DNA of 64,000 bases from a virus (lineage: Duplodnaviria > Heunggongvirae > Uroviricota > Caudoviricetes), in the IMG/VR virus record IMGVR_UViG_3300022660_003821; one strand, given 5' to 3'. The notes under the pieces were generated by a model that worked only from the letters and a program-made list of their open reading frames with translations, was not told the DNA's origin and did no database searches. Shown piece by piece: positions 2,784-55,915 of this stretch (position 1 is the stretch's first letter; each line of letters begins with the position of its first letter). The position numbers were made by a program, and so were the translations under genes.

Positions 2784-3033
2784 CTCAGCTAAGAAAGTGT
2801 CTCAGAAAGGCTTGGAGGTGGCAAAAACAGGGTGTTCCGATATGGGGTTGTTGTGACGGTTTTGAGGACATGATGCGGACCTGTCGGAAACAAGAAGGTG
2901 GCTGGGAGACCTCCAGTTATATATAAGGTATAAAATCTGCCCAAAAATGAGACTTAAATTTTGAGGCCAGAAATTATATATGGTATTCGCACCACAAGGC
3001 ACACCCTCCCTCGTATTTTATTTTTCGTAAGTC

Positions 3034-3114
3034 GCTGAAAATCAACGATTTAGCACTTTCACTTTTGTAGTAAGTGAAACACAAAGGTGCTGAAAATCAA
3101 TGATTTAGCACTTT
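3034..3114. promoter_or_regulatory. two 26-bp direct repeats, GCTGAAAATCAA(C/T)GATTTAGCACTTT, flanking a short inverted repeat; operator-like
   Basis: Copies at 3034-3059 and 3089-3114 with one mismatch. A second repeat pair, AAATGAGACT(G/T)AAA..GAGGCC, sits near 2666 and 2945. Confidence 0.45.
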
Positions 3115-3489
3115 TTTGATGCCAAACGGCAATTTTTCTCGCGGTTAGAAATACAGGCGTGTGGATGGGTGTCTGGGCACGCACACGTAGACTCCCGTCC
3201 ACGCAGGTCTGGGCACGCTCGCAGACTTGACACACGAGGCTTTGCCCACACGTGAAGTCCACGCCGACAAGTGGGCGGGAGCAGGTCTGGGCACGTGATG
3301 CACAGCCACACACGCAGGGAAACTCCCGCTGGACGCGCTAAGACTCTGCCGCGCTCTTTCTCCTGCGCATAATGCTCGTGGAAACAGGCGAAGAGACAGG
3401 CACGTAGCACCCACCGTTTCAGCCGTAACTTTGCAGCGTCAATTCCGACAAAGACGACCCGTCTGTCAGGGTAAAAATCTTCGATTTTT

Positions 3490-4035
3490 ATGAAAACTTC
3501 AAGCAACATCAACGCAACAAGTGCTAACGTAGTTAGCAAGTCATCAACCCTCGCAACCGAGCAGAAGCCGGTTAAAACCCAAAGGGTTTTAGAAACTCGT
3601 GAACAGTGGGGTGTGATTTTCAATCACACAGTCAGCCTCGTGGTAGCATACACGAAGGGCGAAGCCCTACCCGAAGACTCTCGCAAAGGCTTTGCCTTTG
3701 GCACAACCAAAGATGCACCCCACTGCCGAGGTTATGCCCAATCTTTGATTGGGGGCTTCGTGAGCAAGAAAGCCAACAAGTTCTTCGCTCAAACCGTAGG
3801 TTTGCAGACCGTTGAGGAGCGAACCAAGATAGCTATTGCTATCTTGCTGAAAACCAAGTTGGGCGGTGCGGACGAGAGCAAGGCACGTAGCATTCTCGGC
3901 AAAGCCGAGCCAAAGCAAGCGAAGACCTTTGCCGAGGCGGTTTTGAACGGAGTTCAAACAAGCAAGCCAACCGCTGAGGTTGCTCCAAAGGAGCAAAAGG
4001 CGAAACCCAAGAAGACTGCGAAAAAAGCCAACTAA
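3490..4035 (+). CDS. hypothetical protein with a lysine-rich, histone-H1-like C-terminal tail; possible DNA-binding protein
   Basis: 181-aa ORF with a protein-like sequence and a KEQKAKPKKTAKKAN tail, followed by a strong terminator. Confidence 0.5.
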   Translation: MKTSSNINATSANVVSKSSTLATEQKPVKTQRVLETREQWGVIFNHTVSLVVAYTKGEALPEDSRKGFAFGTTKDAPHCRGYAQSLIGGFVSKKANKFFAQTVGLQTVEERTKIAIAILLKTKLGGADESKARSILGKAEPKQAKTFAEAVLNGVQTSKPTAEVAPKEQKAKPKKTAKKAN

Positions 4036-4065
4036 CCCGTAGGGTTAACACCTCGCTCCGAAAGT

Positions 4066-4093
4066 CCTCTCCCCTTTGGGGAGGGGATTTTTT
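4066..4093 (+). terminator. rho-independent terminator
   Basis: CCTCTCCCC-TTT-GGGGAGGGG followed by ATTTTTTG. Confidence 0.7.
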
Positions 4094-4094
4094 G

Positions 4095-5165
4095 TTGCCC
4101 TATTACGTGGGCGCACATAATTACGCAGATGGGCGTACACGCGCAAAAATACGCGCCTCCACACAACACGCTGGGCACAGATGGGCACGCACGCAAAACA
4201 CGTGGGCTTGCACATAACACACGTGGCACCACGCAGCACTCTCTCGTGGGCTGTTGTGGGAGTGCGTGGAACTTGGTGGACGGGTGTGGACTTCCAATGC
4301 GTGAAAGTTGCCGATTTTTTGGGGGTCCACACGTAGCCGTAATGGGTGCGCACGATAGTCGCGTGGCTTTCCACCCATGAACCTGGGCGTACACAATCTG
4401 CACGTGGCTACCCAACGCATATTCGTGGACACCCAGCAACAACACGTGGACATCCAACGCATAACTATGGGTGCCCAACCGTAAGCCTTGGGTGTCCATA
4501 CGCAACAAATGGGTGCCCAAGCCAAACACGTGACAGCCCACGCAAATATCTGGGTGCCCACAAAACCTCGTGGGTGCCCAATCTCATCGTGTGGGCATCC
4601 AGCCAAAACACCTGACCGCCCACTATACAACACGTGGACACCCAATTCAGCATTGCCTTGGACCTCCACGCAAAAATGTGGGCATCCAATTTGTCGCGTG
4701 GCTTTCCACGAAACATTGTGGACACCCAAAGACCTCGTGGATGCCCGTAAGACTTCGTGGACACCCAATCAATATCGTGGAAGCCCACCGCAAATGGTGT
4801 GGCAGTCCAGTAGCGTCCACCCTCCTAAAGCGTGGAGTTCCACCGCATGTTTGTGGAGGTCCACGAAGTAACAACACGTGGCTCCACGTTGAGCATTGTG
4901 TGGACATTCAGGTGCTTGAAACGTGGGAGTCCGTGCGCAACAACGTGAGCACCCATATAACAAGCGTGTGGCTGTCCACGACATGTTGGGTGGGTGTCCA
5001 ATTTCGTGGGAGTGCGTGGAAGCAGGTGGGTGTCCACATGTGTCCAGTGTGGAGGTGTCTGGACGAGGCGTGGGTGCCCAGTGTGGACGCTGTGGGCGAG
5101 CGCATAATAGGCATCCACGTTACCTGTCCACATACCGGTCCATGTGGACACTCGATGGCGTGTTA
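4095..5165. repeat. dense array of about 45 degenerate GTGG-N3-5-CCA(C/A) half-palindromic motifs at roughly 20-24-bp spacing; GC-rich, non-coding
   Basis: Recurring GTGGACACCCAA, GTGGGTGCCCAA, GTGGGCATCCAA, GTGGAGGTCCAC and similar. The period is not a multiple of 3. The many mutually overlapping ORFs on both strands are stop-poor composition artefacts. Confidence 0.75.
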
Positions 5166-5209
5166 CAATTACGCTCGCCCAAGCCTGCCCATTAGTATTA
5201 AGCCGAGCC

Positions 5210-5236
5210 TTCTCCCTTTGGGAGAAAGTTTTTTTA
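5210..5236 (+). terminator. rho-independent terminator closing the array segment
   Basis: TTCTCCC-TTT-GGGAGAA followed by AGTTTTTTT. Confidence 0.7.
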
Positions 5237-5691
5237 ATAAATTTTTTTTCGCTAAATTGTTGTGTGTCAATTTGTTGCGGAATACCTTTGCAATGTTTTC
5301 AGTTCTGTCGTTGGCGAATGACAAAACAATGAAAATGCACCGATGTGGTGCTCGCTCTTTGACATACGGAGTTGTTTGACAAGTACAAATGCACACTTGC
5401 GTCTGACGCACTTTATGAGTGTGTGTTATACGAGCAACACGGATAAGTGGCGTGTATGTCTGACATACACAAAACGATGCCAACAAAGCAACAAAGGATT
5501 GACACTTAACTACCCCATACACACATAGTGTATGCTCGTGACAAGGCGAGAAAAATGGGTTTGCTTACATAAGCTATAAGTATGCCCAAAAAGTAGGAGT
5601 CAAGTGAGTAAAAATTTCGTTTAACTTGCTCACATACGGAAGGCGGTGTGTGAGTGTAACAGACACGTTAAGGGCGTGAGCCGACAGAATT

Positions 5692-6315
5692 ATGGCTAAA
5701 ACAAATAGCAACAATCAGAGTGTAGCAACAAAGTTCAACGTAACTTTCGGTGTTCAGGGTTATGACGTGATACCCGCAAATGCAGCCGTGTTGCTCAATG
5801 AGCGCAAGATGCGTATTGACGGCGAACTCAAAAGCGTAACTGAGTTTATGGCTGTTGAGGGTGTAAAAAGCACCAAGAACACAGACCTCGTGCTTCCTGT
5901 ACTCGCCATTATGCTGGCAGATGCACGTACAAGAGGCGGTTTTGCAAGCGACTTCAAGGTGTGCGTAGTAGGCAGTCAGACCGTTGAAACCAAACTTACC
6001 GCCAAGAGTGCGTTTACCAAGTGGCTCAAAGGCAATGTCGTGTACAAGAGCAATAGCGAGGGTGTGCTCAACAAGGCACTCGTACTCGATGAGGGCTTGT
6101 ATCTCCGCAATACGGCTCTGCGTGTTAGCGAAAAGCAACCCATCTACTCTGCAACCGGAGATACCTTGCGTGTGTTGCTCTTCAAGACCGCTGAGGCTAT
6201 TACCAAGCAAGCGACAATGTTCAAGGACATCGTAGGTCAGGCAAAGAGCATCTTCAACGCTGCCTACACAGAGGCGAAACCTGCAACCAAGAGCGAGGAT
6301 AAAAACGCCGCATAA
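5692..6315 (+). CDS. hypothetical protein (207 aa)
   Basis: Clean ORF with a 450-bp leader carrying repeated GACATAC motifs, followed by a terminator. Confidence 0.55.
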   Translation: MAKTNSNNQSVATKFNVTFGVQGYDVIPANAAVLLNERKMRIDGELKSVTEFMAVEGVKSTKNTDLVLPVLAIMLADARTRGGFASDFKVCVVGSQTVETKLTAKSAFTKWLKGNVVYKSNSEGVLNKALVLDEGLYLRNTALRVSEKQPIYSATGDTLRVLLFKTAEAITKQATMFKDIVGQAKSIFNAAYTEAKPATKSEDKNAA

Positions 6316-6337
6316 CATACACATCTGCATAGCGACA

Positions 6338-6370
6338 CCGCCCAGCCTACACAGGTTGGGCGGTTTGCTT
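6338..6370 (+). terminator. rho-independent terminator
   Basis: CCGCCCAGCC-TACACA-GGTTGGGCGG followed by TTTGCTT. Confidence 0.65.
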
Positions 6371-6523
6371 ATATAACGTGTGGGCGCACATTATGTTACG
6401 TGTCCACACGCTTGTATGTGTAATATGTGCGTCCACATAAATAGGTGCGTGCGTATAATTGCGTCTTGTCGCTAATGCGTGAGTTTTCTCCACATTTTCC
6501 CGAACCCTCAAAAATGCTCAAAA

Positions 6524-8834: not shown

Positions 8835-9098
8835 ATGCTTACCAAGGAACAACAAGCAGTCATTCTTGAAGAACACCACAAACAATGTCTTGCATTTTGG
8901 AAGCGCGAGAAACATTCTGATGTTTTTGCGAGTGCTATGGCATTGGTTGACATTGTACGTACTAAGCATAATCCAGTTGTACCCAAAGGTGAGGTATTGG
9001 ATGCAGAAGTACGCAAAGAAGTGGTGGAAAAACATCTTCAGGAGTTTTGCGAGATTATAAGAACTGAGTTAGAAACATCAATAGAAACGGAGGAATAA
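8835..9098 (+). CDS. hypothetical protein (87 aa)
   Basis: ORF. Confidence 0.4.
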   Translation: MLTKEQQAVILEEHHKQCLAFWKREKHSDVFASAMALVDIVRTKHNPVVPKGEVLDAEVRKEVVEKHLQEFCEIIRTELETSIETEE

Positions 9099-9289
9099 TG
9101 GATAGAATACAACATCATATTTGGGACAAATTGTGTGAAATGTCTGGAGAGGACGTAGCGCGTGCTTTCACTGACTATCACGGTAACGATTTATTGAATG
9201 AAGGCTTTTATCATCACTTGGTTGATGAAGGTATGATTGAGGATGATTTAGGTCTTCAAGAGTCTGATGATGAGGAAGAAGATGATTAA
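9098..9289 (+). CDS. small acidic protein (63 aa, DDEEEDD tail)
   Basis: ORF with an ATGA stop/start overlap with the upstream gene. Confidence 0.4.
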   Translation: MDRIQHHIWDKLCEMSGEDVARAFTDYHGNDLLNEGFYHHLVDEGMIEDDLGLQESDDEEEDD

Positions 9290-9327
9290 AGCGTGAGCAA
9301 ATGAAAATTTTTGCCACGCTTTTTTCT
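9289..9327 (+). terminator. rho-independent terminator
   Basis: AAGCGTG..CACGCTT followed by TTTTC. Confidence 0.6.
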
Positions 9328-9395
9328 TGAAAATTTTTCATCAAGTGGACAACATTGGACACCTCGACTTTCTATTCTTCACAAAGCGATAGATT

Positions 9396-9653
9396 ATGAA
9401 TGTACAAATTTCAACTCGTGTTAAGTCATTGTGCTTGGCAGTCAAAGCCTTTGTTGTGAGCATGTCTGAGGATATGAAGCACAGCAATCTCGACATACGT
9501 TTCAATAATGAAACAGACTCTTTCAACGCATTCACCCAGTTAAGAGAAATGGGTGTTAAGTGCTATCACGCCGGCAAGAATGCGCCTAATGGTGCGGCTG
9601 TTATGGTGTATAATTGTGACAGAAATGATTTTCAACTTCAAATACGCGATTAG
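9396..9653 (+). CDS. hypothetical protein
   Basis: ORF. Confidence 0.4.
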   Translation: MNVQISTRVKSLCLAVKAFVVSMSEDMKHSNLDIRFNNETDSFNAFTQLREMGVKCYHAGKNAPNGAAVMVYNCDRNDFQLQIRD

Positions 9654-10070
9654 ATGAAAACACCAATTCCTGTAATGTATTCTGTATATGGCAATCCTCA
9701 AGGACCTTGGTATTTTGGATATTGTATTGATAACACAGTTCAATATTCAACAATTGCTGTTGTAAGTAACACCATTGATAGTTTGCCTACTTATGCGAAG
9801 TTAGTTGTGCCTTTCACTCAGTTTAATCCTTTCAACTTAACTGCGAACATAAAGATCAATTTAGTTAATCAAACAGAAATTGTAAACAATCAAGTGACAA
9901 TTCAGGAGATTAAAAAGGGCGATTATTTTCGTTTCAAGGACGATGAAAATGCGCCTATCTGGGTGCGTTCTGAATATAATCGGAGCACTAAGAAATACGA
10001 GTGTTATAAATACGAAGATGTAAACCATTTTTTAGAGTGTAAAGGAGACCGAAAAGTATGGCTACTATAA
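9654..10070 (+). CDS. hypothetical protein
   Basis: ORF. Confidence 0.45.
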   Translation: MKTPIPVMYSVYGNPQGPWYFGYCIDNTVQYSTIAVVSNTIDSLPTYAKLVVPFTQFNPFNLTANIKINLVNQTEIVNNQVTIQEIKKGDYFRFKDDENAPIWVRSEYNRSTKKYECYKYEDVNHFLECKGDRKVWLL

Positions 10071-10333
10071 CGACACCAGAAATGAAAATACCTGCTGGAC
10101 TAAGCGGTATTATGAGTTACGCTCACGTAAAGGTTGGGCGTTATCCAATTCAAATGAAAAATCCTGAGCATAGTTGCACTGTCATTGTTAATGAAGCAAC
10201 TGACCAGTATCTTGCTGTGGCATTGGAAGTATCTGACAATTTATCTGATGTATGTAATAAGTTTTTATTCCATATTCAGGCTATTGAAGCAAGCGGCATT
10301 CTGCAAAGGAAATTAGTGTATTACAAAGATTAA
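10058..10333 (+). CDS. hypothetical protein
   Basis: ORF. Confidence 0.4.
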   Translation: MATITTPEMKIPAGLSGIMSYAHVKVGRYPIQMKNPEHSCTVIVNEATDQYLAVALEVSDNLSDVCNKFLFHIQAIEASGILQRKLVYYKD

Positions 10334-10343
10334 AAGTGATGTT

Positions 10344-11342
10344 ATGAACAAAAAAGTGAAAAAATATATGCCCGAATACGTGTGCTTGTATTACGTGGAT
10401 TATAACAGCAATTTGAACAACGAAACAAAAACTTTGCAGTCGTGTTTGACGCAAAATTCGCTGTACCCGTTAACTGAAAGCGTATTCGATTGGTGGGATT
10501 TCCCAGAAGAACATTATCTGGACGAAATCAAAGAGAAAATGCGTAAAGATGGCGTTGAGCATTTATTTGACGAGCATCTTGATGATATTCGTGATTGGCT
10601 ATACGACAATGACAAGTCCACACCTGTAGAAGATTTGTTGAGAAATACAGGTAGAATTGCATGTTTCTACGATTTAGGTGTAGAGCTGGATTGTGGGTGG
10701 CATGAAGCATTTATGTGTACGCCTTGGAGAAACGAATCCATTGCCTCTTGTGCATATAAAGTTCGCCGTAAGCTCGGCATTAAGAAAGGTACTCCAGAAG
10801 CAGAACAAATCTATAACATTTTGTGCAATGCAAGTTATGGTGGCTCTTTACGCATTTATTTCAATGGGGATATTGAATCACTCATTTCTGGAGATGAATA
10901 CCAAAGCGCGGACAATAAAAAAGATTTCCAGCAGATTCGCTTTAATGGTCGAGTTGCATTGGCAGTATATGACCCCACTAATGGTGCAGGTGATTTTGAA
11001 TACATGAATATTGATTGTGTATTCCCGTTTTTACGTGACAATCTATCTGTTTCCGATACTGATAAATACAGTTTGGAGCAATGTTTCGGTATGTGCGGAG
11101 ACTGGTTGGACAAATGTGTAAAGCCTGAGTTGTCAGTCGAGCCTCTGAAGAAAAAGCGTACAATGGAGAAATCTCCGGCAGCGGAATTGAGAAAGCGTGA
11201 AGCTGAACTTGATGCAGTTTTCAAAGCTGGAGGATGTACTGCCGGCGATATGGATATGCGCCGTCATAGAGATGTGTACTATGACAACAATATTCCATGC
11301 GGCCATCATTGTCCTCATTGTGGAACATTCTGGATTGATTGA
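10344..11342 (+). CDS. hypothetical protein (332 aa) with a Cys/His-rich C-terminus
   Basis: ORF two genes upstream of the reverse transcriptase, in the same operon. Confidence 0.5.
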   Translation: MNKKVKKYMPEYVCLYYVDYNSNLNNETKTLQSCLTQNSLYPLTESVFDWWDFPEEHYLDEIKEKMRKDGVEHLFDEHLDDIRDWLYDNDKSTPVEDLLRNTGRIACFYDLGVELDCGWHEAFMCTPWRNESIASCAYKVRRKLGIKKGTPEAEQIYNILCNASYGGSLRIYFNGDIESLISGDEYQSADNKKDFQQIRFNGRVALAVYDPTNGAGDFEYMNIDCVFPFLRDNLSVSDTDKYSLEQCFGMCGDWLDKCVKPELSVEPLKKKRTMEKSPAAELRKREAELDAVFKAGGCTAGDMDMRRHRDVYYDNNIPCGHHCPHCGTFWID

Positions 11343-11349
11343 TACGATT

Positions 11350-11835
11350 ATGACACAAAAAGATAACGGATACAAGTGGAATGCCGGAACTCAACCTTTA
11401 GAGAAATTGGTTGAGCCGAAGTTTAAGATTGAAAAAGGCAAATGGTATGTATGCATAAAAGACCTACTCGATAATTATGCAAACAAAGCATTTTGTAAAG
11501 GTGATACCTACTTATCTACACAAGACGGAAGTTTAATTCCATCAAATAGCAATGTTCCCTTTGAAGTAGTTTGTGATAGTACATATTTCAGAGATTGGAC
11601 TATCAATGATGCAAAGGATGGTGATGTGCTTGCCGCTCATGAATGTCTTGTGTTGTTTAAGAAACTTGATGGACTTAACATTAAATGTTATTGTACTTAT
11701 CATTTTATGGGTCATCAAAGTTTTTATGTAGATACATTGCAAAATAAGGATGCTTTTCATCCAGCTACCAAAGAACAACGTGACCTCTTGTTTCAAAAGA
11801 TGAAAGAAGCGGGTTATTATAAAACTTGGGAATAA
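11350..11835 (+). CDS. hypothetical protein (about 161 aa)
   Basis: Start taken from the ATG just after the upstream stop. Its 3' end overlaps the RT start by 10 nt, indicating translational coupling. Confidence 0.45.
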   Translation: MTQKDNGYKWNAGTQPLEKLVEPKFKIEKGKWYVCIKDLLDNYANKAFCKGDTYLSTQDGSLIPSNSNVPFEVVCDSTYFRDWTINDAKDGDVLAAHECLVLFKKLDGLNIKCYCTYHFMGHQSFYVDTLQNKDAFHPATKEQRDLLFQKMKEAGYYKTWE

Positions 11836-13100
11836 CTATGGCAGATATAATTTTACAAAAATTCTTCGAGATTGAACGCTGGGAGAAAGCGATTGAAAAG
11901 GGTGTTGTAAAAGACATTCGCAAGGATCAACTTATTAAGTTAACAAGCGAAGAAACTCGCATCCAGATGTATCGCGCTATGTATAACGGAACGTATGAAA
12001 TATCGCCTCCTCATACGGCAAAGATACCGAAGGATAACGGCGATTTTCGTACAGTTTATGTGAACGAACCTATTGACCGTATCGTTCTCAGCATAGCAAA
12101 TGACTTGCTGTTTGAACTTATGCCTGAAATGGTGCATAAGACATGTAAATCATATCAGACAGGTATTGGTTGTGGCAAGGTGGTACTGGAGGTTAGCAAC
12201 ACGATTGTAAGCGCGAACACAACAGACATTTTGGGGTGGAAAGCGGACCTTAGCAAGTATTTTGACAGCGTACCTATCAGATATATAGACGAGGCTTTTG
12301 ACAGAGTAGAAAAGAAATATGGTTACTCAGCATTAATACATGTCCTACGCAAGTATTATCATTGTGACTTGTATTTTGATGAAGATAATCAATTACATTC
12401 TGCTTATCAATCCTTAAAACAAGGTTGCGCGGTTGCCAGTTGGCTTGCAGATGTGTTATTATACAATCTGGATGAAGAGTTGTCCAAACTTCCAGGATAT
12501 TATGTTCGATATTCTGATGATATGCTGTATATCGGTTCTGACTATCAATGGGCAATGGAGTTGTTGCAACGCAGATTGTCCGAGATGGAAATGTCTTTGA
12601 ACCCCAAGAAAGTAGAATATCTGTCGGTCAATCAGTGGTTCAAGTTCTTAGGGTTTAGTATTAAAGGCAAAGACATTTCATTGTCTTCCAGTCGAATTAA
12701 AACATTTCAAAAAGAGGTTGAAGCACGTACAATAAAGAAACCGAAAGTGTCGCTTGACAAGGCAGTCCATTCAGTTAATCGTTATCTATACAAGGGTAAC
12801 GGTGAATTTAGTTGGGCTACTCAAATATTGCCGGTTTGTAATGTACAAAAGGACATTGATGAATTGAATAAATTCGTCATGGATTGTCTGAGGGCGGTGT
12901 CAACTGGAAAACGAAAAGTCGGTGGTCTTGGTTATGTAAAAAACAAAACAGATGGCTGCATCGTGCGAGGGCGAGGAAAGAATGTTACAGCAAACCGTAA
13001 CAAAACAGGTAAAATTGAGGGGTATTTAACTATCGGTTGTATGAGAAATGCCCTAATTACGAGCAGATCGGTATATAACACACTGGTCTTGTCTCTATAA
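11826..13100 (+). CDS. reverse transcriptase (424 aa), unclassified prokaryotic RT
   Basis: RT motifs 1-7 are readable: IPKDNGDFRTVYV, IDRIVLSIANDLL, ADLSKYFDSV, QGCAVASWLADVLLYNL, YVRYSDDMLYIG, LNPKK..FLGF. There is a basic 130-aa C-terminal extension. Confidence 0.85.
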   Translation: MGITMADIILQKFFEIERWEKAIEKGVVKDIRKDQLIKLTSEETRIQMYRAMYNGTYEISPPHTAKIPKDNGDFRTVYVNEPIDRIVLSIANDLLFELMPEMVHKTCKSYQTGIGCGKVVLEVSNTIVSANTTDILGWKADLSKYFDSVPIRYIDEAFDRVEKKYGYSALIHVLRKYYHCDLYFDEDNQLHSAYQSLKQGCAVASWLADVLLYNLDEELSKLPGYYVRYSDDMLYIGSDYQWAMELLQRRLSEMEMSLNPKKVEYLSVNQWFKFLGFSIKGKDISLSSSRIKTFQKEVEARTIKKPKVSLDKAVHSVNRYLYKGNGEFSWATQILPVCNVQKDIDELNKFVMDCLRAVSTGKRKVGGLGYVKNKTDGCIVRGRGKNVTANRNKTGKIEGYLTIGCMRNALITSRSVYNTLVLSL

Positions 13101-13139
13101 AGTGTAAATTGAGTATGCAATTGTGAATGAAGATACGAG

Positions 13140-14200
13140 CATTTATTCGACAGGTCTATTAACCAGAGTCCAGGAACCATTCATCCGGTATATCAACCGG
13201 ATTCAAGGTGCCAGGATTCTGGCATTAACCTGTCCATATCGAAAGAGTAAAGTTTCATACCATTCGTATGACATTCACACAAAGCACATTGTGTAGGTTC
13301 AAGGAATAAGGATTAAATATCCCGCGTTTAAGCAGCTCTACTGCGAGTCTGAAGGCCCTCTAACGATACGCCTTCGGACTCGATTATAGCTGATATACGC
13401 TGGAAATATCAACACAATAAAGGAATGTGCCAGTTATTATGAGAACCGAACAAACACTTAGCATAAAAGCGTGATTCAAGAGAATGAACTTCAATTTGCC
13501 GTCTGAATATGACGTTTCATGGCACGAGATTTCCACATCCTATCAGATGTTCCATCTCGTGATGGCGCACGTCATCTCTTACGACTAATATCTAATTCGT
13601 ATAGTGATATGCCAGCATTCCTGAGAATTACAAAAAGTTAGCATAAACGTATGGTTCAAGATGTGGAAAGTTTAATATTCAGAATGTAAGTCGATTCACA
13701 GCATCTGAATCCAGTTTATCTACTGGAATAAGATGCTGTTAATCAACATATTCTGAATTATATCAAAGCGATACAGTAATATGCCAACCGCATAGAGAAC
13801 CGTAAAAATAATCAGTATAGAATGGCAGTTCAAGTAATACATCTTCAATAACCCCGTGTCTAAGGACGGATTACCATCTCTCCATCACCCATATCTGGGT
13901 GATTCCTTGATGGTGAGCCGTCCAAGCACGGGCAATATCAAGACACTACAGAGATATACCGGTATTTTGAGATCTGCCGAAAAGCACGTATTGCAATACA
14001 AGGAGAAACCCTGATTTAATAGGCCGCGTTGCTAAATAAGCCCGCTGCCGGCGTGCAGTCTCCGTTATTACCGAGATGCACGCCGGCTACATGCTTCTTA
14101 ACGCGGCATATATCATACGATTATAGGAACGTGCCATTTCTATGAGTATTGCAGAACTTAACACAAAGTGAGAAGTCAAGATTAGAGGCTTCATTGTGCA
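13140..14200. repeat. at least 6 degenerate tandem repeat units of about 170-190 bp, sharing the consensus ATATGCCA..TGAGAA..AAAAA..AGCATAAA..GTATGGTTCAAG
   Basis: Hand alignment of the units keyed near 13235, 13423, 13607, 13777, 13960 and 14133 gives roughly 60-70% identity. There are no ORFs of 60 aa or more in any frame. Confidence 0.6.
14047..14087. other. GC-rich perfect hairpin with an 11-bp stem, GCCGGCGTGCA/TGCACGCCGGC
   Basis: Perfect inverted repeat around a 19-nt loop. Confidence 0.6.
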
Positions 14201-14365
14201 GCTTCAGATTACAAGGGCACCACGCATTCACCAGCCGATCGAGCTGGTTCTACAGGTGCCCACTGTAACAAAGCTGCATACATCGAATAACTATAGTCAT
14301 GTGTCATTCTAATTGAGACTTCATGGTAACGCAACCGATTCTTACACAAGCAATCAACATTTAAG

Positions 14366-14430
14366 ATACAGTATTATACCTGGATCCTGAAGTAATTAAC
14401 ATGGACTTCAGGATCCAGGACATACTGTAT
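14366..14430. other. 65-nt near-perfect hairpin with a 24-bp stem
   Basis: ATACAGTAT-TATA-CCTGGATCCTGAAGT on the 5' side, loop AATTAACATGG, ACTTCAGGATCCAGG-AC-ATACTGTAT on the 3' side. Confidence 0.75.
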
Positions 14431-14494
14431 ATATCAAGTATGTAAAGCAATGCGTCAATGATTTGAGTGTGAATTATTTAATAACATTTTAAGT

Positions 14495-14953: not shown

Positions 14954-14985
14954 CTGTTTTTCAATAACTTTTAATTCTATCAATT

Positions 14986-16068: not shown

Positions 16069-16241
16069 CCTCAAATACTTGGGAGGTATTTGTGTGATGG
16101 GTTGATAATATTTATATACCCTCCAGGTAGAAGGGACCGATGCCAGGCTACCACCTGGCCTGGTCCCTTCACGTAAGGAGGCTATAAATCATCACAGTAA
16201 AGTTATCCCCCTAATCAATAATCACACTAAATATTATCACT

Positions 16242-33433: not shown

Positions 33434-33447
33434 CTAAACAAACAACA

Positions 33448-34157: not shown

Positions 34158-34166
34158 TTAAGGTGC

Positions 34167-49704: not shown

Positions 49705-50740
49705 TATGTATATAAGTAGAGAAGATAAAGAGTTCTTGATTAAAGAACTTATGATAGAACTCAAAGCTAAGCCAGATGGCGGCAATAAGAACTTAATTGT
49801 TCCACGTTGCCCCTACTGTGGTAAAGAGGGTGGAAAGTTTGGAATTTATATCGGTAAAGAGACTGATAAAAAGAAACTTTTCATGAGCCATTGCTTCTCA
49901 TGTCATCATACGACAAAAGATATTAACCAACTTTTAGATGACATAGGCCGACCCGATTTGAAATTGGAAGACACAGCTTCGTTTCAGCCTTTGGAGATCC
50001 CTCAATTCTTCTCACTGGAAGAGGAGGAAATTGATGATGAGTTGTCAATTGTGGAAATGCCTGAAGGCTGGAAGCGGTGTTTTAGGAACTCTTATTTACA
50101 CAGCAGGGGATTTACATTTGATGATTACGAATACTTCCCTGTTGGTACCACAAGAGGTCTTAACTTTAAGTTCGACAATTATGTAGTATTCCCAATTATT
50201 GACAATGGCGATACAGTTGGGTATATCTCTCGACATATTTGGGATAAGTCTGAAATAGATGAATACAATAAGAAAGCAAGGCGTAACGGTAAATATGAGA
50301 TAAGGCGTTACAATAACAGCATAGAAAACGACTTCGTAAAATTACTGTATAACTATGACTCTATTATTGAAGATGAGACTGATACAGTAATAATTGTAGA
50401 AGGGATTTTTGATGTTATTGCTCTTACTCGGAAATTGGATTTGTACGACAATACTCGTATTGCAGTTGTTGCGACCTTCGGCAAAAAGATTTCCAATACG
50501 CAGATTTGGAAATTGCAAAGCAAGGGGGTAAAAACGGTCATATTGGGTTATGACGGTGATGCCGTAGATGCTATAAATACAGCAGCCATACAACTCAATG
50601 ATTATTTTGATGTTTTTATCGCCTACATAGAAGACCCGGATGCAGATTTTGATAGTATGGATTTCTGGGAAATTTTCGATGTGTTTTCTATGTCTTTGAA
50701 GACCCCAGTAGAATATAAACTTAATACAGTGCAGATATGA
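49697..50740 (+). CDS. DnaG-like primase (zinc finger plus TOPRIM)
   Basis: CPYCG..CFSCHH zinc site; TOPRIM residues at IIVEGIFD and GYDGDAVD. Confidence 0.75.
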   Translation: MGNMYISREDKEFLIKELMIELKAKPDGGNKNLIVPRCPYCGKEGGKFGIYIGKETDKKKLFMSHCFSCHHTTKDINQLLDDIGRPDLKLEDTASFQPLEIPQFFSLEEEEIDDELSIVEMPEGWKRCFRNSYLHSRGFTFDDYEYFPVGTTRGLNFKFDNYVVFPIIDNGDTVGYISRHIWDKSEIDEYNKKARRNGKYEIRRYNNSIENDFVKLLYNYDSIIEDETDTVIIVEGIFDVIALTRKLDLYDNTRIAVVATFGKKISNTQIWKLQSKGVKTVILGYDGDAVDAINTAAIQLNDYFDVFIAYIEDPDADFDSMDFWEIFDVFSMSLKTPVEYKLNTVQI

Positions 50741-52443
50741 AAGAATTGATTACATGGCTCCAAAACAATAAAATATCCTTCAATGAAATTGACAATGAGG
50801 TAATAGAGGTTGTTGGGATGGGTAAGATGTTTCTGGAAAATACTGAAAAGATAAATTCCATCTTCAGAACTGATAAAGAAGGTAATCTGATTTTTAATGG
50901 CAGTGAGGACCCGGAGGCATTGATGGAAGAAGGTATCAACTATATTGCCTTTAAGTTCGGAGACAACTGGTACTATTATGATTTACGAAAGGACTTCGCA
51001 TTGAATATCCTAAAGTATGTTGGTACGCGCGTGCAAACTACACATGATTTCCAGTTCGTGAACCTCGGTGTACATACTCCGTTTGAGTTATTGAATGGAA
51101 GTTTTATGCCGAAGTTATGGGTTAAGAAAGCAGCTTACTGTGGTCATAAGGCAATTGGTATATGTGACAGGAATACGATGGCAGCTTGCTACAATCTTCA
51201 AAAGGAATGCGCTAATGCTGGAATAAAACACATATTTGGTTATTCATTAACTTTTGTTGAGGGAGATAATAAAGTAGGAGCAAAAGTTTATGTTCAGTCT
51301 CAATCAGGATTACGTAACCTGTTGAGAATCCAAAAGGCAATTATGGTTGATAGTGAAGATAAAACTATTGGATGGAATGAATTGCTTAATCGTGGTGCCG
51401 GCAATGTGTTGGTGCTGGACAAGTATTCATCTTATTGGATAAAGGAAAATCCTGATTTAGTGAATGACTTGTTAGATGCGTTTGAACATGTATTCTACCA
51501 GGTAGACTTGTCTGAATATAAGGCTGAACGCATTGACATTAAAGTGCTGGAGGCCACTAAATACTATTTTGATAATTTGTATGACGATTCTGAAGTTCGC
51601 CCAATCTTGTTGTGCGACTGTTATTATCTCGACAAGGATAATGCTAAAAATAAAATCATACTGAATAAGGTGGCTGAGGGTGCTGCACATGAGCAGAGTG
51701 ATGATCAATATTTCAAAGATGTTGATGAACATTATGCTGTATTTGAGCAACTATTTGATGCCGATGTGTGGGATGTTGAGGTCTTGTTTCAAGAATGTTG
51801 CGATAACACATTAGTGGTTTCTGATGGTGCCGTTGCGCAATTTGAAAACACACGAAACTTCATGCCGAAATACACCATGCTTCCAGAAGAGGAAAAGAAA
51901 TATGGCACCGTGCATAACATGTTTAATCAATTGCTCGAAGATGGATTAAAACGCTTGGTGCCGGAAGACAAGCAAGAAGAATACAGGAAACAGATGGAAT
52001 ATGAAAAATATATTATTGAATCAACCAATAATGTAGATTACCTCCTTGTCCAATATGACACTTGCAATTGGAGCCGACAAAACAACATATTGGTTGGTTG
52101 TGGTCGTGGTTCTGCTGCCGGTTCTCTACTGTTGTACTTGCTTGGCATTACATTGATTGACCCTTTACAGTATGGTCTCATTTTCGAGCGTTTCTTGCTT
52201 CCAGAACGTGCTGGCTTATATAAAGCTGACACTACCATTATCGGTGAAGACATTGAAACCGATGAGTATGTAGAGATTGAACTGGAAGATGGTCACACGC
52301 TAAAGGTTTTCAAGGATGCAGAGCTGATCGTAAAACGGGAGGGATCTGAAAAACCAATCATTGTATATGCAGACGAACTGCAAGAGAATGACGATATACT
52401 ATTTGATAACAAGGACGTGCTATTCACTATAAATGAATTGTAA
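50737..52443 (+). CDS. dnaE: DNA polymerase III alpha (DnaE) N-terminal fragment: PHP domain and the start of the palm, ending in an intein-N-like tail
   Basis: PHP-like VNLGVHT..GHKAIGICDRN; then GCGRGSAAGSLLLYLLGITLIDPLQYGLIFERFLLPER matches the canonical DnaE segment; a 79-aa extra tail follows. Confidence 0.75.
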   Translation: MKELITWLQNNKISFNEIDNEVIEVVGMGKMFLENTEKINSIFRTDKEGNLIFNGSEDPEALMEEGINYIAFKFGDNWYYYDLRKDFALNILKYVGTRVQTTHDFQFVNLGVHTPFELLNGSFMPKLWVKKAAYCGHKAIGICDRNTMAACYNLQKECANAGIKHIFGYSLTFVEGDNKVGAKVYVQSQSGLRNLLRIQKAIMVDSEDKTIGWNELLNRGAGNVLVLDKYSSYWIKENPDLVNDLLDAFEHVFYQVDLSEYKAERIDIKVLEATKYYFDNLYDDSEVRPILLCDCYYLDKDNAKNKIILNKVAEGAAHEQSDDQYFKDVDEHYAVFEQLFDADVWDVEVLFQECCDNTLVVSDGAVAQFENTRNFMPKYTMLPEEEKKYGTVHNMFNQLLEDGLKRLVPEDKQEEYRKQMEYEKYIIESTNNVDYLLVQYDTCNWSRQNNILVGCGRGSAAGSLLLYLLGITLIDPLQYGLIFERFLLPERAGLYKADTTIIGEDIETDEYVEIELEDGHTLKVFKDAELIVKREGSEKPIIVYADELQENDDILFDNKDVLFTINEL

Positions 52444-52445
52444 CT

Positions 52446-53747
52446 ATGACAATAACCGATGAAATGAAGAAAGCCATTGAGTTGATAGAAACAACCAATG
52501 AGAGTGTGTATATTACAGGTAAGGCTGGTACGGGAAAGACCACATTCCTTAAATGGCTGGTTTGTAACTGTAAGAAAAAATTTGTTGTTACCGCTTCCAC
52601 TGGCATTGCCGCCATTAACGCTGGAGGTGTGACGTTGCATAGTTTTTTGAATATTCCTTTTGGAGTTCATAATCCTAACTCTGCTGTCACTCAATTTAAT
52701 CATTCAAAAATTGAGTTGATGAATACAATAGATGCTCTAATCATTGACGAAATAAGCATGGTGCGTCCAGATACCATAGATTACATTGACCAAAAATTAC
52801 GCATGTATAGAAATAGTGACGAGCCATTTGGGGGCGTACAAATCATCATGTTTGGCGATTTGTATCAACTGCCACCTGTTGTTACAAACAATGAAAAAGA
52901 CATCCTTCTCCAGTTCTATCGTGGCGTGTACTTTTTCTATGCGTATGTATTCAGAAAGCATGGATTTCATATTGTTGAATTAAATCATATCTTCAGGCAA
53001 ACTAATCCAAGGTTCATTGAAATATTGAATAACATCCGTTCTTATAAGTTGACACAAGAAGATATTGAGGATCTGGAGGTGTTACGAGATAGAAAGTTAA
53101 GTGAGGAGTACGATAATCAGTATATTCATATTTGCTCATATCGTAAAGATGTTCAACGTATAAATGAGGAGCTATTGGGAACACCAACCCACACCTATTA
53201 TGCTACAATTGAAAAAGATTTCAATTTAAGTTCCGCACCATGTGATAGAAAATTGTCATTACGTGTTGGCGCACGGGTGATGATGTTAATCAATGACAAG
53301 GCTCACGTCTACTGCAATGGCTCTCTGGGCGTAGTTGTAGGATTGGATGATAAAGTAGTCAAGGTGCAGTTAGATAATGGCTGTACGGTGGCCGTAGAGC
53401 GTTGTGAATGGTCTGCACAAGAATATAAGATGAAGAATGGTAAAATTGTAAGTGAAATTAAAGGAACTTGTAAACAATTTCCTCTAACATTAGCGTGGGC
53501 AATTACTATTCATAAAAGTCAAGGCTTAACATTTGACCATGTAGTAGTTCATACAAAAGGAGTGTTTTGTCCCGGACAGGTATATGTTGCGTTAAGCCGA
53601 TGTACATCACTTGAAGGCATAATTTCCGATGTTTTTATCGACCATCGTCATATCCTCCCAGATGACGAATTATTAGCATTTGAAAAGGCTTATAATGCCA
53701 CGCACAACTTCTTTAATAGAGAGACTTATAAATTGATGAGACAATGA
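52446..53747 (+). CDS. Pif1/RecD-family helicase, encoded between the two DnaE fragments
   Basis: GKAGTGKTT, LIIDEISMV, GGVQIIMFGDLYQLPPV, ITIHKSQGLTFDHV and YVALSRC. Confidence 0.8.
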   Translation: MTITDEMKKAIELIETTNESVYITGKAGTGKTTFLKWLVCNCKKKFVVTASTGIAAINAGGVTLHSFLNIPFGVHNPNSAVTQFNHSKIELMNTIDALIIDEISMVRPDTIDYIDQKLRMYRNSDEPFGGVQIIMFGDLYQLPPVVTNNEKDILLQFYRGVYFFYAYVFRKHGFHIVELNHIFRQTNPRFIEILNNIRSYKLTQEDIEDLEVLRDRKLSEEYDNQYIHICSYRKDVQRINEELLGTPTHTYYATIEKDFNLSSAPCDRKLSLRVGARVMMLINDKAHVYCNGSLGVVVGLDDKVVKVQLDNGCTVAVERCEWSAQEYKMKNGKIVSEIKGTCKQFPLTLAWAITIHKSQGLTFDHVVVHTKGVFCPGQVYVALSRCTSLEGIISDVFIDHRHILPDDELLAFEKAYNATHNFFNRETYKLMRQ

Positions 53748-55915
53748 AAGTTGTTAGTGTACAAACTAAAAAAAGCACAAAGCCAATTCCCGTGATAGAT
53801 TGCTTTGTTGACTCTGGATATTTACAAGGGCCAGGTGGACAGCTCCCAGATGTGGATGTCGATTATCAATCAGATAAACGTCAAGAGGTTAAGGAGTATA
53901 TAGAACATCGTTATAACCACGACAACAAACAAAGGGTATTCTCTGCTGGTACTGTAACTACATTAAAAGTAAAGGCTGTGATTAAAGACGTGGCCCGTAC
54001 TATGCGTATTCCACCAGCATTGGTCAATTATCTGACAGCAATTTTTGATGATGATAAGATGACCTATACAGACATTTTCAAATTGGCAGCACAGAACAAA
54101 AAGGTGGCAAAGTTTATTGCTGACTATCCGCAGTTATTTGAAGATATACGCACACTTATGTTTCAACCGCGCTCAGGTTCAATTCACGCTTCGGCATTGC
54201 TGGTTACACCTGATGAAAAAGATGGAGAAGATGTTGAGTGCTTTGATTTTGTTCCAATAAAAAAGGTGGACAATATTCTTGTGTCTGAGAATGACGGTTA
54301 TGAACTTGATGAACTCGGTCTTCTGAAGAATGACTGCCTTGCAACAAAAGAGTTATCTAAACTTCAAGCAACGATGGCTATCTGCAATCAAGAGTATGGC
54401 ACTAACTTATCGCTTGAATCTTTGGCTACTGGTGCGCTTGATGATGAAAGAGTGTACCAATTGCTTGGACAAGGTTATACACAAAATGTCTTCCAGTTCT
54501 CTTCTCGTGGTATAACTAAGTTTCTCACGCAGTTAAAGCCTACTTGTATAGGAGACCTTATTGCGGCAAATGCTTTGTATCGTCCGGCAACAATGGGAAA
54601 CTTGGATGAATTTGTTAATAGAAAAGATAAACTGGTCGCGCCCACTTATCTTTGGGGAACGTACAATGCTCTCAAAGACACATTTGGAGTTGTGGTGTAC
54701 CAGGAACAGATTGTTCACATGGCCCGTGAGGTTGGTAATTTCAGTCTTGGAGAGGGCGTAAATCTTGTGAAGTTCATTTCAAAAAAGAAGACTGACAAGA
54801 TTTTGGCAATGAAAGACAAATTCATGACTGGAGCAAAAGAAAATGGGTGCCCTAAAGAAGATGCAGATGCTATATGGGCGCAAATCGAAGCTGCTGGAGC
54901 ATATTGTTTTAACAAGAGCCACGCTACTGCTTATGCCGTTACATCATACGTTGGTGCATATTTGAAGGCTAATTATCCAACTGCATTCTATACTGTGGCA
55001 TTACAATGGGCAGATGACGATGAACTTGTTACATTGATGGGAGAGATGGAAGCATGTAGCAATGCAAAGGTTGTTCCTCCAGATATTAATGTAAGTGAAG
55101 ACGCTTTTCATACAGATTATGCAACGGATTCGATATTCTGGTCCTTATCACGTGTCAAGCAACTCGGAACTAAGGCTGTGCAATGGATTATGGAAGAACG
55201 CCGTAAGAATGGAGATTTCACAAGCATCAACAACTTCATTGACCGAATATTCAAATACAAACTGAAAAAGTATGAATATTGGGATGATCCTGATAATGCA
55301 GAAGAAGCTACTCGATGTCCAGTAAATGCGAGATGTGTCCTAAACTTGATTCTTGCCGGGTGTTTCGATAAGGTTGAACATGCTGAATCAGTAGTAGAAC
55401 GATATGCTATTATTGAAAAAGCTGCTGAACATTTAGGGTTTGAAATTAAAGAAAAAGACTTTCCAGCAGATATGATTAACAAGCATTATTTCTGGAGTCA
55501 GCAGCAAATCGTGGTGTCTGGCATTGGTGCCATAGATTATAAAAGAATATATGATAACTCTGAAGCAAAGGCTCAATTGAAAGGTAAGGCTTCCTATGCA
55601 ACTTTAAGAGACGTTGCTCCTTTGGAAGCAGAAGATAAGAAAGTGGCAATTTGCGCTACGGTTGTTGATGTTGAAGAACGCAAATTCACAAGTAAAAAGA
55701 CAGGTGATATTGAAGTTTTCTGTAAAGTCACGCTCCAGCAAAACAATGATATTTGCGAATGTGTGATTTGGCCGGAAGAATACGCTCAACATCGTGGTGC
55801 GTTAATGAATGCCAAAAATAAATTGATCATTTTCTCTGCAACTATCAAGTACAGTGATTATGAAGGCAAAAATAATCTTCAATTTAACAAACGTAGTGTA
55901 TTAGAAGTTGTGTAA
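53744..55915 (+). CDS. dnaE: DNA polymerase III alpha (DnaE) C-terminal fragment: polymerase core and OB fold, with an intein-C-like N-terminal extension
   Basis: PDVDVDYQSDKRQEVKEYIEHRY resumes the DnaE sequence immediately after FERFLNPER; FNKSHATAYA is the DnaE signature. Confidence 0.8.
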   Translation: MKVVSVQTKKSTKPIPVIDCFVDSGYLQGPGGQLPDVDVDYQSDKRQEVKEYIEHRYNHDNKQRVFSAGTVTTLKVKAVIKDVARTMRIPPALVNYLTAIFDDDKMTYTDIFKLAAQNKKVAKFIADYPQLFEDIRTLMFQPRSGSIHASALLVTPDEKDGEDVECFDFVPIKKVDNILVSENDGYELDELGLLKNDCLATKELSKLQATMAICNQEYGTNLSLESLATGALDDERVYQLLGQGYTQNVFQFSSRGITKFLTQLKPTCIGDLIAANALYRPATMGNLDEFVNRKDKLVAPTYLWGTYNALKDTFGVVVYQEQIVHMAREVGNFSLGEGVNLVKFISKKKTDKILAMKDKFMTGAKENGCPKEDADAIWAQIEAAGAYCFNKSHATAYAVTSYVGAYLKANYPTAFYTVALQWADDDELVTLMGEMEACSNAKVVPPDINVSEDAFHTDYATDSIFWSLSRVKQLGTKAVQWIMEERRKNGDFTSINNFIDRIFKYKLKKYEYWDDPDNAEEATRCPVNARCVLNLILAGCFDKVEHAESVVERYAIIEKAAEHLGFEIKEKDFPADMINKHYFWSQQQIVVSGIGAIDYKRIYDNSEAKAQLKGKASYATLRDVAPLEAEDKKVAICATVVDVEERKFTSKKTGDIEVFCKVTLQQNNDICECVIWPEEYAQHRGALMNAKNKLIIFSATIKYSDYEGKNNLQFNKRSVLEVV

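Follow-up and report, generated by a model that had tools for sequence, protein, structure and literature searches.

A 64,000-nucleotide (nt) stretch of phage DNA (Caudoviricetes; IMG/VR record IMGVR_UViG_3300022660_003821), referred to here in its full length as the window, contains a long array of short dyads between two orphan genes that encode proteins of 181 and 207 amino acids (aa). Our analysis shows that this array is selected, locally acting, helically phased, and non-coding and that it is tied to the two orphan genes. It is very probably a cis-acting array of sequence-specific sites for a protein. As an overall reading, we tentatively favor a one-face, iteron-like array for a protein encoded in the same module, which would serve as a replication origin or initiator-loading zone or in copy control.

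Geometry, selection, and coding capacity of the array

The array covers ∼1 kb of non-coding DNA (Table 1), in which ∼40 copies of a 14-nt dyad, YR-TGG-RYRY-CCA-YR (R, purine; Y, pyrimidine), are detectable. The initial annotation, made from the letters of the window alone, had described a GC-rich island at positions 4095 to 5165. The GC content is indeed 0.54 to 0.58 across positions 4050 to 5100, against a window average of ∼0.40, but the GC-rich segment is wider than described (about 3140 to 6450) and holds both flanking genes and two clusters of half-sites. The 10-nt frame of the dyad, TGG-N4-CCA (TGGNNNNCCA), occurs 32 times in the whole window, where 12.25 ± 3.5 copies are expected, and none of 100 dinucleotide shuffles reached 32. 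Twenty-six of these exact copies lie inside positions 4287 to 5080 and six are distributed across the other 63 kb. The motif had been written as GTGG-N3-5-CCA(C); the dyad stands, but the variable spacer does not, as an exact-pattern count in the array region found strictly N4 and no copy with N5 or N6. Degenerate TGG-N4/5-CA variants occupy the left end of the array (4106 to 4260).

A strand-aware position weight matrix (PWM), built from the array's own exact TGG-N4-CCA copies, gave the unit (C/T)GTGG-(A/G)(C/T)(A/G)(C/T)-CCA(A/C) and was applied at two thresholds. At a score of at least 6, it marked 40 positions, from 4106 to 5143. At a score of at least 12, it gave 34 strand hits in the 64 kb, of which 33 were in the array and a single one outside, in keeping with the proposal that the motif is specific to the phage and is not dispersed within the window. 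The earlier figure of about 45 motifs is a fair estimate of the number of slots (about 1,050 nt divided by 21). Outside the TGG/CCA arms, the unit shows only purine/pyrimidine preferences and a slightly AT-richer spacer center.

Start-to-start distances between units range from 19 to 24 nt with a mode of 20 to 21 nt, which upholds the predicted spacing of about two helical turns. When pairwise site distances were pooled over 10 arrays, peaks appeared at 20 to 21, 41 to 42, 62 to 64, 83 to 85, ∼104, and ∼125 nt, with almost no sites at the half-period distances of 10 or 31 nt. These peaks give a period of 20.9 nt that stays coherent through six or more units. Such a period equals two turns of B-DNA, and therefore all dyads face one side of the helix.

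Elsewhere in the window, and in the nearest isolate, the temperate Bacteroides phage BS-TP1 (PQ571274, 111.7 kb), TGG-N4-CCA is neither enriched nor avoided; BS-TP1 has 21 copies outside its array, compared to roughly 15 by our base-composition estimate. Because the motif is nearly absent from the rest of the genome, it acts locally and not as the site of a global regulator. Four other interpretations of the motif were rejected. An array of clustered regularly interspaced short palindromic repeats (CRISPR) is built of repeats of 23 nt or longer that are separated by unique spacers of about the same size, whereas the whole unit here measures 21 nt, made of a 14-nt degenerate dyad and a 7-nt spacer; no cas genes were found among the annotated neighbor genes. 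A restriction-site or Chi-like signal disagrees with the neutral frequency of the motif elsewhere and with its strict dyad geometry. A sigma-54-like or sigma-70 promoter does not fit the spacing, and a promoter scan showed no excess. Finally, an internal polarity switch, from A/C-rich to G/T-rich spacers, was considered as a mark of a bidirectional origin; it is present in the window but inconsistent in relatives, and it was dropped.

We then compared the array with that of L005, a related locus with 97% identity. Substitutions per site amounted to 0.009 in the TGG/CCA arms, 0.024 in the spacers, and 0.092 in the central N4, and 5 of 7 other close pairs followed this trend. The pattern indicates purifying selection on the TGG/CCA arms. 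At the dyad center, the four bases mutate 2 to 4 times faster than the inter-site spacers, which could reflect a neutral center next to constrained spacers or a hypermutability of the CpG type; the phage does encode a DNA methyltransferase. RYRY is the largest class of centers (87 of 230 sites), and common forms are GCAC, ATGC, GCGA, and ACAC. Indels in close pairs measured 21, 39, and 41 nt, that is, whole units. At one end of the array of another relative (L173, ∼4650 to 4760), at least four near-identical 25-nt units (ATGGGCGTCCAGCCGCCTCCACAAA) follow one another, which points to recent tandem amplification as a mode of array growth.

The list of open reading frames (ORFs) contains stop-poor ORFs of up to 269 aa on both strands across the array. 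Furthermore, public gene calls place minus-strand ORFs inside the arrays of L172 (3898 to 5259, 453 aa), L170 (3968 to 4921, 317 aa), and L166 (5024 to 5494, 156 aa). A genuine protein-coding repeat gene, for example at 4570 to 5379 (+) or 4121 to 4768 (−), is nevertheless close to inconceivable given the results of the coding tests. Except in L005, no homologue of an array ORF was found in 18 related loci. In the ORF at 4570 to 5379, the 29 substitutions that separate the window from L005 fall 9/13/7 on the three codon positions and comprise 22 non-synonymous and 7 synonymous changes; the other array ORFs are alike in this respect. The array as a whole differs by 0.031 substitutions per site, 3 to 10 times more than the flanking genes (0.003 to 0.012). 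Any reading frame is broken because the unit spacing wobbles between 19 and 24 nt, and in the distant relative L150 the array has a TGA every 10 nt, hence in all three plus-strand frames. As judged by these comparisons, the array is not coding and its ORFs are artifacts; by the same standard, the minus-strand calls in the three relatives are artifacts of composition and thus spurious database proteins. The initial annotation had also called the ORFs artifacts, on the argument that the unit spacing is not a multiple of 3. The conclusion holds but the argument does not, as 21 is such a multiple. A search for a single long ORF through the region found none that was conserved and no coding pattern of substitution.

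A functional repeat RNA was also considered, in which the array would be transcribed between hairpins as a structured RNA or as a sponge for an RNA-binding protein. In support of it, a terminator scan recovered the plus-strand hairpins that had been reported on both sides of the array (Table 1), the dyad-type array folds better as a single strand than shuffled sequences (z = −4.5), and the direct-repeat arrays that occupy the same slot in some relatives have a strong bias toward the plus strand (GTGG 52 versus CCAC 12, TATGA 38 versus TCATA 8). However, Rfam gave no match inside the array at gathering or permissive thresholds, a promoter-box scan found no plus-strand box at the array start, and two direct-repeat arrays showed no excess of structure (z = +0.6 and +0.7). 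Moreover, the stem positions (TGG/CCA) are strictly conserved in sequence with no compensatory change, and the periods of 10, 10.5, and 21 nt seen in the slot fit the helical repeat of DNA. We rejected a known RNA or conserved structure, since Rfam was without match and the folding excess was limited to the dyad-type array, and we regard a repeat RNA in general as very improbable.

Conservation of the module and its candidate binder

The window is part of a large phage that encodes 11 tRNAs, NrdD, SbcCD, a DnaB-like helicase, a primase, a PIF1/Dda-like helicase, Pol III alpha, a sigma factor of the extracytoplasmic function type, a terminase, and a tyrosine integrase. Megablast found no near-identical phage in GenBank. 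The terminase TerL is 58% identical to that of BS-TP1, the host of which is Bacteroides salyersiae BG8. In BS-TP1, the equivalent slot is an unannotated gap of 1.5 kb (66.5 to 68.06 kb) between gp57 and gp58, which are the homologues of the 181-aa and 207-aa proteins, respectively. The carriers form a family of ∼100- to 140-kb temperate Bacteroidales phages; relatives were found on IMG/VR contigs of 35 to 140 kb and also in Muribaculaceae, Prevotella/Palleniella, Porphyromonadaceae, and other Bacteroidales assemblies.

Each related locus has the same conserved block, composed of a 318-aa gene (−), the 181-aa gene (+), the array, the 207-aa gene (+), and a 223-aa gene (+). This synteny is kept in more than 30 loci, BS-TP1 included, even where the 181-aa protein is only 31% identical. 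In the relatives, the arrays measure 0.8 to 1.5 kb and contain 20 to 55 PWM sites. Their family consensus, CGTGG-GCGC-CCACG, reads as a perfect palindrome of 14 nt whose half-site is YR-TGG-RY, which bears out the dyad symmetry proposed for the GTGG..CCAC core. A scan of bacterial genomes with the 207-aa protein returned seven loci; six have a TGG-N4-CCA array within the phage module, and the seventh, L150, has an array of the TATGA type in the same slot. When IMG/VR was scanned at the DNA level for a pattern of three sites in a row, most matches were unrelated plain tandem repeats, and only this Bacteroidales phage family remained after filtering. Every array with diverse units adjoined a homologue of the 181-aa gene, and the other matches were plain tandem repeats. 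No homologue of the module was found among 72,556 plasmids. In L168, the 181-aa gene is separated from the array by an inserted ORF of 91 aa (3713 to 3988), which has a hairpin of its own; therefore, the junction between gene and array is not inviolable.

Three architectures occur in the slot: dyads every 21 nt, direct GTGGR repeats ∼10.5 nt apart, and direct GTATGA repeats 10 nt apart. The half-site of the window, (C)GTGG(A/G), is repeated directly every 10 to 11 nt in L166, while L169 and L171 have mixed arrays and L170, L172, and L173 have ordinary dyads even though they are close kin of L166. The GTGGR half-site is thus seen in both orientations in the same slot among related phages. L150 and L167 represent a distant lineage in which the neighbor genes are true orthologues at 42 to 48% identity. 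Their loci contain no TGG-N4-CCA at all, and their slot is filled by ∼100 direct GTATGA repeats with a strict 10-nt period, the first few of them inverted. The half-sites Y-R-T-G-G and T-A-T-G-A resemble one another, and the change between them in L150 and L167 is the only independent motif switch that was found. Because the same slot contains direct repeats at ∼10.5 or 10 nt, what is conserved is not dyad symmetry or a hairpin but the placement of one half-site per turn of the helix, all on one face.

The 181-aa and 207-aa proteins had been proposed as candidates for the binder, and they are indeed the natural ones. Neither matched a family in Pfam, PHROGs, or PADLOC, profile searches of the PDB were empty for both, and no fold match was obtained, including for the model of the 181-aa protein against BFVD. 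A recognizable DNA-binding domain or fold was thus found in neither of them by family, PDB, or fold searches. An AlphaFold2 model of the 181-aa protein shows a six-helix core with a predicted local distance difference test score (pLDDT) of 85 to 91; the model of the 207-aa protein has a pLDDT of 72. An H1-like lysine tail had been noted on the 181-aa protein, but it is present only in the three closest relatives and is not a feature of the family.

Just before helix 1 of the model, residues 29 to 37 of the 181-aa protein read (K/T)-T-(Q/L)-R-V-x-E-x-R in every GTGG-type phage, whether dyad or direct (K-T-Q-R-V-L-E-T-R in the window), and this segment is replaced by A-K-Q-I-F-D-E-T-L in the TATGA-type protein. 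The C-terminal AEPKQAK block also differs in direct-repeat lineages. A ribbon-helix-helix assignment of the N-terminal K-T-x-R-V segment was unsupported by any tool and is kept only as a lead. Arg32 is nearly universal across all 37 representatives of this small protein family. Positions that did not vary among 19 GTGG-type phages were taken as invariant. The 181-aa protein has 19 of them, and 5 are lost in the TATGA lineage (R32I, V33F, R37L, F70L, and K97R); the same lineage has lost 4 out of 37 in the 207-aa protein but 1 out of 28 in the 318-aa protein (Fisher test for the 181-aa versus the 318-aa protein, P = 0.03).

The genes of the block also differ in their histories. When L167 is compared with L169, the 318-aa and 223-aa proteins are 77% and 53% identical, respectively, but identity drops to 40% in the 181-aa protein, and the 207-aa protein of L167 is about equidistant from all its GTGG-type relatives (48 to 53%; L169, 53%). 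The 181-aa and 207-aa genes of the TATGA lineage branch as outgroups, whereas its 318-aa and 223-aa genes are nested among their relatives. Because their histories differ from those of these neighbors, the two genes that flank the array behave together with it as one co-inherited unit. The change of the motif between lineages argues for a phage-encoded binder that co-evolves with it. We consider it fairly probable that the binder is encoded within the module; that it is the 181-aa protein, the residues of which change with the motif, has slightly less than an even chance.

Alternatively, the array might be bound by a host factor that is conserved in the Bacteroidales (for example, a transcription factor, a nuclease, or a nucleoid-associated protein), and the phage would use the array to divert this factor, to recruit it, or as a protective signal of the Chi type. 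Phages with hosts in the Bacteroidaceae, Prevotellaceae, Muribaculaceae, and Porphyromonadaceae all have the GTGG half-site, whereas their flanking proteins have diverged to 31 to 50% identity, as would suit a host protein. On the other hand, where the motif has switched (L150 and L167), the phage's own 181-aa and 207-aa proteins have changed as well, and the module proteins match no known defense or anti-defense family. The exact N4 dyad geometry and the helical phasing are unexpected for Chi-like or restriction-type signals, and the frequency of the motif elsewhere, including the 21 copies in BS-TP1, shows neither avoidance nor enrichment. A host-factor array is therefore quite improbable.

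Possible functions of the array

The array is the center of a module that it forms with the 181-aa and 207-aa genes, with weak clusters of half-sites on both outer flanks, and each 14-bp dyad consists of two YR-TGG-RY half-sites. In the iteron-like reading that we favor, the 181-aa protein would read the half-site through its N-terminal T-x-R-V-x-E-x-R segment, possibly jointly with the 207-aa protein. We infer cooperative binding of a module protein along one face, such that ∼90 monomers side by side would build a nucleoprotein filament or wrapped complex of roughly 1 kb. The sites in the flanks would autoregulate the 181-aa and 207-aa genes. The least certain step is the last one, in which the complex would work like an iteron region, either as a replication origin or initiator-loading zone or in the control of copy number by titration. 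In favor of such a role, the phage encodes a replisome of its own (DnaB-like helicase, primase, and Pol III alpha), for which no initiator or origin was identified, and the array of BS-TP1 borders the flat minimum of the cumulative GC skew. Taken by itself, an origin or copy-control role is possible but doubtful.

The O-protein sites of lambda ori are individually dyad symmetric and about two turns apart, and P1 oriR/incA consists of the iteron repeats of an origin and a control region. Together with the 12-mer array and inc of Vibrio cholerae oriCII, these iteron origins share with our array a short tandem motif phased at ∼21 to 22 bp. A helically phased initiator array with a titration region beside it, the hallmark of such origins, defines oriCII (PMC4551981), and iteron origins use an element-encoded protein that binds cooperatively and has extra related sites for titration or autoregulation (PMC4551981). 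They differ from the array in having 4 to 12 sites instead of 40 to 100. Moreover, our array lies between two genes and not in or beside a rep gene, its half-site orientation and period vary between lineages, and it has no recognizable initiator family, DnaA box, or clear unwinding element.

Several observations weigh against the reading that we favor. Some concern the role in replication. No initiator of a recognized family (Rep_3, lambda O, RctB, or DnaA-like) was found beside the array. No DnaA box lies within 35 kb of it, the nearest one (TTATNCACA) being at position 40730. As to an unwinding element, there is only an AT-rich stretch of 30 to 35 nt (5228 to 5260) after the array, which doubles as terminator tail and promoter region. 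The cumulative GC skew of BS-TP1 has a flat minimum at 56 to 69 kb, within which the array lies (66.5 to 68 kb), but no clear inflection, and the skew also tracks the direction of transcription. The 40 to 100 sites far exceed those of any characterized origin. An integrase is present, and the module is absent from plasmids. Other observations concern the array and its binder. The periodicity may stem in part from the duplication of units. The co-variation of motif and protein rests on a single independent switch and is confounded by mosaic evolution, the losses of invariant positions do not differ significantly between the 181-aa and 207-aa proteins (Fisher test, P = 0.25), and a natural R32H variant (P0099) keeps an ordinary GTGG-type array.

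A centromere or tether is an unlikely alternative reading, in which the array would be the segregation handle of an episomal form of the phage (carrier state or phage-plasmid-like), and the bound module protein or proteins would either recruit a motor, distant or from the host, or anchor the phage genome to the nucleoid of the host. Long arrays of short repeats beside genes for small proteins are classic centromere anatomy, and the scale of 0.8 to 1.5 kb with 20 to 100 sites is nearer to centromere or tether arrays than to origins. BS-TP1 was found integrated in no database genome. Two cultured isolates contain relatives on approximately phage-sized contigs, namely, L147 (Palleniella muris NM73_A23 NODE_7, 142 kb, coverage 480) and L149 (Prevotella sp. 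MGM2, 116.5-kb contig); the contigs, in the range of 116 to 142 kb, could be an episomal or actively replicating form or a mere assembly break. Conversely, no nucleoside triphosphatase (NTPase) of the ParA, ParM, or TubZ type occurs in or near the conserved block in any lineage, and the flanking proteins have no sequence or fold match to binders of the ParB helix-turn-helix, ribbon-helix-helix (ParR, ParG, or omega), or TubR type. The "ParA-like" gp90 of BS-TP1 is of the Mrp/Nbp35 type and is encoded 20 kb away, beside a radical-SAM gene. The suggestion that related genomes might have par or rep genes next to the array was checked, and no relative has any. In addition, the phages encode integrases, some relatives lie within contigs of 190 to 595 kb, and the plasmid collection contained not a single homologue.

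Known segregation systems resemble the array to various degrees. The parS sites of inc18 plasmids are arrays of short repeats in free orientation that are bound by small dimers (PMC9499535), which offers a precedent for the changes of orientation in our slot. In pSM19035 and other inc18 plasmids, the omega repeats, direct or inverted, are each bound by a small dimer, and the same sites are both the centromere and the operators of neighboring promoters (PMC9499535). There, however, contiguous 7-mers (7 to 10 per site) spiral round the DNA, whereas here units of 10 to 21 nt, in 20 to 100 copies and without contiguous heptads, occupy one face; moreover, no ribbon-helix-helix signature was detected, and the module lacks a partner ParA (delta) gene. 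T30-x-R32 of the 181-aa protein may resemble the Thr and Arg two residues apart (Thr29 and Arg31) on the N-terminal strand through which omega reads DNA; a search of the paper gave Thr29 but not Arg31. The sopC site of F consists of 12 units of 43 bp, each with a 16-bp inverted repeat. In sopC, R1 parC, and pBtoxis tubC, the units of the array are sites for a dimeric centromere-binding protein that is encoded nearby, always together with a ParA, ParM, or TubZ NTPase and a ParB, ParR, or TubR binder; the module has neither, and its units are shorter and three to eight times more numerous. Tethering is exemplified by EBNA1 on the family of repeats (FR) of Epstein-Barr virus and by Rep1/Rep2 of the yeast 2-micron plasmid on STB. 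The oriP FR/EBNA1 system and the E2 clusters of papillomaviruses combine a long, GC-richer dyad array with a virus-encoded dimer in a motor-less tether to host chromatin. These are eukaryotic viruses with unrelated proteins, and the likeness can serve as a working analogy only.

The array might instead be a regulatory platform or sponge that titrates or nucleates a module-encoded regulator and so sets the timing or dosage of early genes, through a silencing filament or copy-number-dependent titration and with no direct role in replication or segregation. This reading, too, is unlikely, but it draws on the elements around the array. A conserved candidate promoter of the 207-aa gene lies ∼120 nt downstream of the array end; an ACCTTTG block at this box aligns in several lineages, L150 included. 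Each module gene is a transcription unit of its own with its own hairpin terminator, and the sites of the binder occur nowhere else in the genome. Weaker clusters of half-sites are found at the neighboring promoter regions. Upstream of the 181-aa gene, the half-site density is 1 to 2 per 100 nt, compared to a window background of 0.11, and TCTGGGCACG occurs three times. Over 16 loci, enrichment is kept both in this cluster (0.88 versus 0.16 per 100 nt) and in the one downstream (1.19 versus 0.16 per 100 nt). Because the clusters flank the module on both sides, their placement suggests autoregulation. Yet two promoters would not obviously need 40 to 100 phased sites maintained across deep divergence, and protein family searches found no known regulator family. 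Furthermore, titration is compatible with origin and centromere roles, since iteron and par systems all autoregulate.

A more speculative possibility, which is doubtful but worth stating, is a self-contained and hitherto undescribed genome-maintenance module of these abundant gut phages. An orphan-fold protein would read one half-site of 5 to 6 bp per turn, in either orientation, and polymerize on one face over ∼1 kb, and the complex would serve either as the origin of replication or, in a carrier state, as a tether to the nucleoid that needs no motor. If this were true, both the DNA-binding fold and the kind of phage cis-element would be new, and the module would not be a diverged Rep or Par system.

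Surrounding features and significance

The features of the module and its surroundings are listed in Table 1. The hairpin after the 181-aa gene was found in most lineages, L150 included. The hairpin after the array was found in the window clade, L009, L020, and BS-TP1 but was not detected in all lineages. The leader of the 207-aa gene, ∼390 nt long, contains blocks shared by all lineages including L150 (GTTCTTTGACATACGGAGTTG, CGAGCAACACGG, GCTCGTGACAAGGCGAG, and ACGGAAGGCGGTGTGTG). Positions 5389 to 5477 of this leader align in full length with the Rfam family Bacteroides-1 (RF01694) at a sub-threshold score (30.5 bits, against a gathering threshold of 43; E = 0.007), and none of 11 relatives reached the gathering score. 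The leader may be a structured leader or a small RNA.

Table 1. Positions of the array, the module genes, and other features in the window
Feature	Position	Strand	Basis
Half-site cluster, ∼5 GTGGR/YCCAC, GC-rich, upstream of the 181-aa gene	3140..3330		Half-site density
Candidate Bacteroides-type −7 box (TAACTTTG) of the 181-aa gene	3426..3433	+	TAnnTTTG regular expression, consensus match only
181-aa orphan gene, leading candidate for the array binder	3490..4035	+	Synteny, N-terminal segment tracking the half-site type
Terminator-like hairpin and T-run after the 181-aa gene	4065..4093	+	Terminator scan
Phased dyad array, ∼40 to 45 units	4106..5156		PWM, exact counts, spacing, conserved arms, non-coding tests
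Terminator-like hairpin and T-run after the array	5210..5236	+	Terminator scan
Candidate −7 promoter box (TACCTTTG) downstream of the array	5283..5290	+	Consensus scan
Conserved non-coding leader of the 207-aa gene	5300..5691	+	Block alignment, Rfam
207-aa orphan gene, second module member	5692..6315	+	Synteny, co-inheritance
Terminator-like hairpin after the 207-aa gene, 12-bp stem with 8 GC pairs	6337..6364	+	Terminator scan
Half-site cluster (GTGGGCGCACAT, GTCCACAC, GCGTCCACAT) before the 223-aa gene	6379..6440		Repeat search, PWM, density
PHP-type polymerase part	50737..52443		
PIF1/Dda-like helicase	52446..53747		
Pol III alpha	53744..55915		

The divergent region between the 318-aa (−) and 181-aa (+) genes contains two copies, 55 nt apart, of the imperfect palindrome GCTGAAAATCAAyGATTTAGCAC (3029 to 3059 and 3084 to 3114), and a further palindrome was noted by eye at 3056 to 3080 (TTTCACTT...AAGTGAAA). 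By their appearance, the palindromes at 3029 to 3114 look like operators. A different palindrome (GGTTCACT...AGTGAACC) occurs at the matching position in L150.

Elsewhere in the window, the reverse transcriptase encoded at 11826 to 13100 (+) matches the UG27 class of defense-associated reverse transcriptases over its full length (PADLOC, E = 2.6e-228). It is not an obvious reverse transcriptase of a diversity-generating retroelement, as positions 9000 to 16500 contain no template/variable repeat pair of at least 50 nt. Downstream of it, ∼1.4 kb (13100 to 14495) is devoid of ORFs of at least 120 aa and could encode a partner RNA; the equivalent region of BS-TP1 consists of gp79 followed by a 1.35-kb gap. 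What seems to be a split DNA polymerase at 50737 to 55915 is in fact three genes in a row (Table 1), and the BS-TP1 annotation lists a Dda-like helicase, DNA polymerase, primase, and DnaB helicase consecutively. The window also carries a DNA methyltransferase gene (23983 to 25617), a transporter gene of the major facilitator superfamily type (28122 to 29288), an SPFH/Band-7 gene (34280 to 35128), and the cluster of 11 tRNAs (33361 to 37030).

Neither the BS-TP1 paper nor full-text literature searches gave a prior description of the array. Repeat arrays with an element-encoded binder are already known. What is new here is the kilobase scale, the strict one-face phasing, the interconversion of dyads and direct repeats, the switch of half-site, the two orphan-fold partners, and the confinement of the element to a family of large Bacteroidales phages from the gut. 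On the practical side, the ORFs that public gene callers annotate in these arrays are spurious and reach 453 aa in length. The gut of humans and animals commonly harbors large temperate Bacteroidales phages, the early genes of which are mostly orphans. The array is the largest non-coding element in the genomes of these phages and is found family-wide, and the cultured phage BS-TP1 on B. salyersiae BG8, with two orphan proteins that evolve with the array, provides a testable entry point. The three architectures in one slot represent a natural experiment on the co-evolution of a binding protein with its array of sites.

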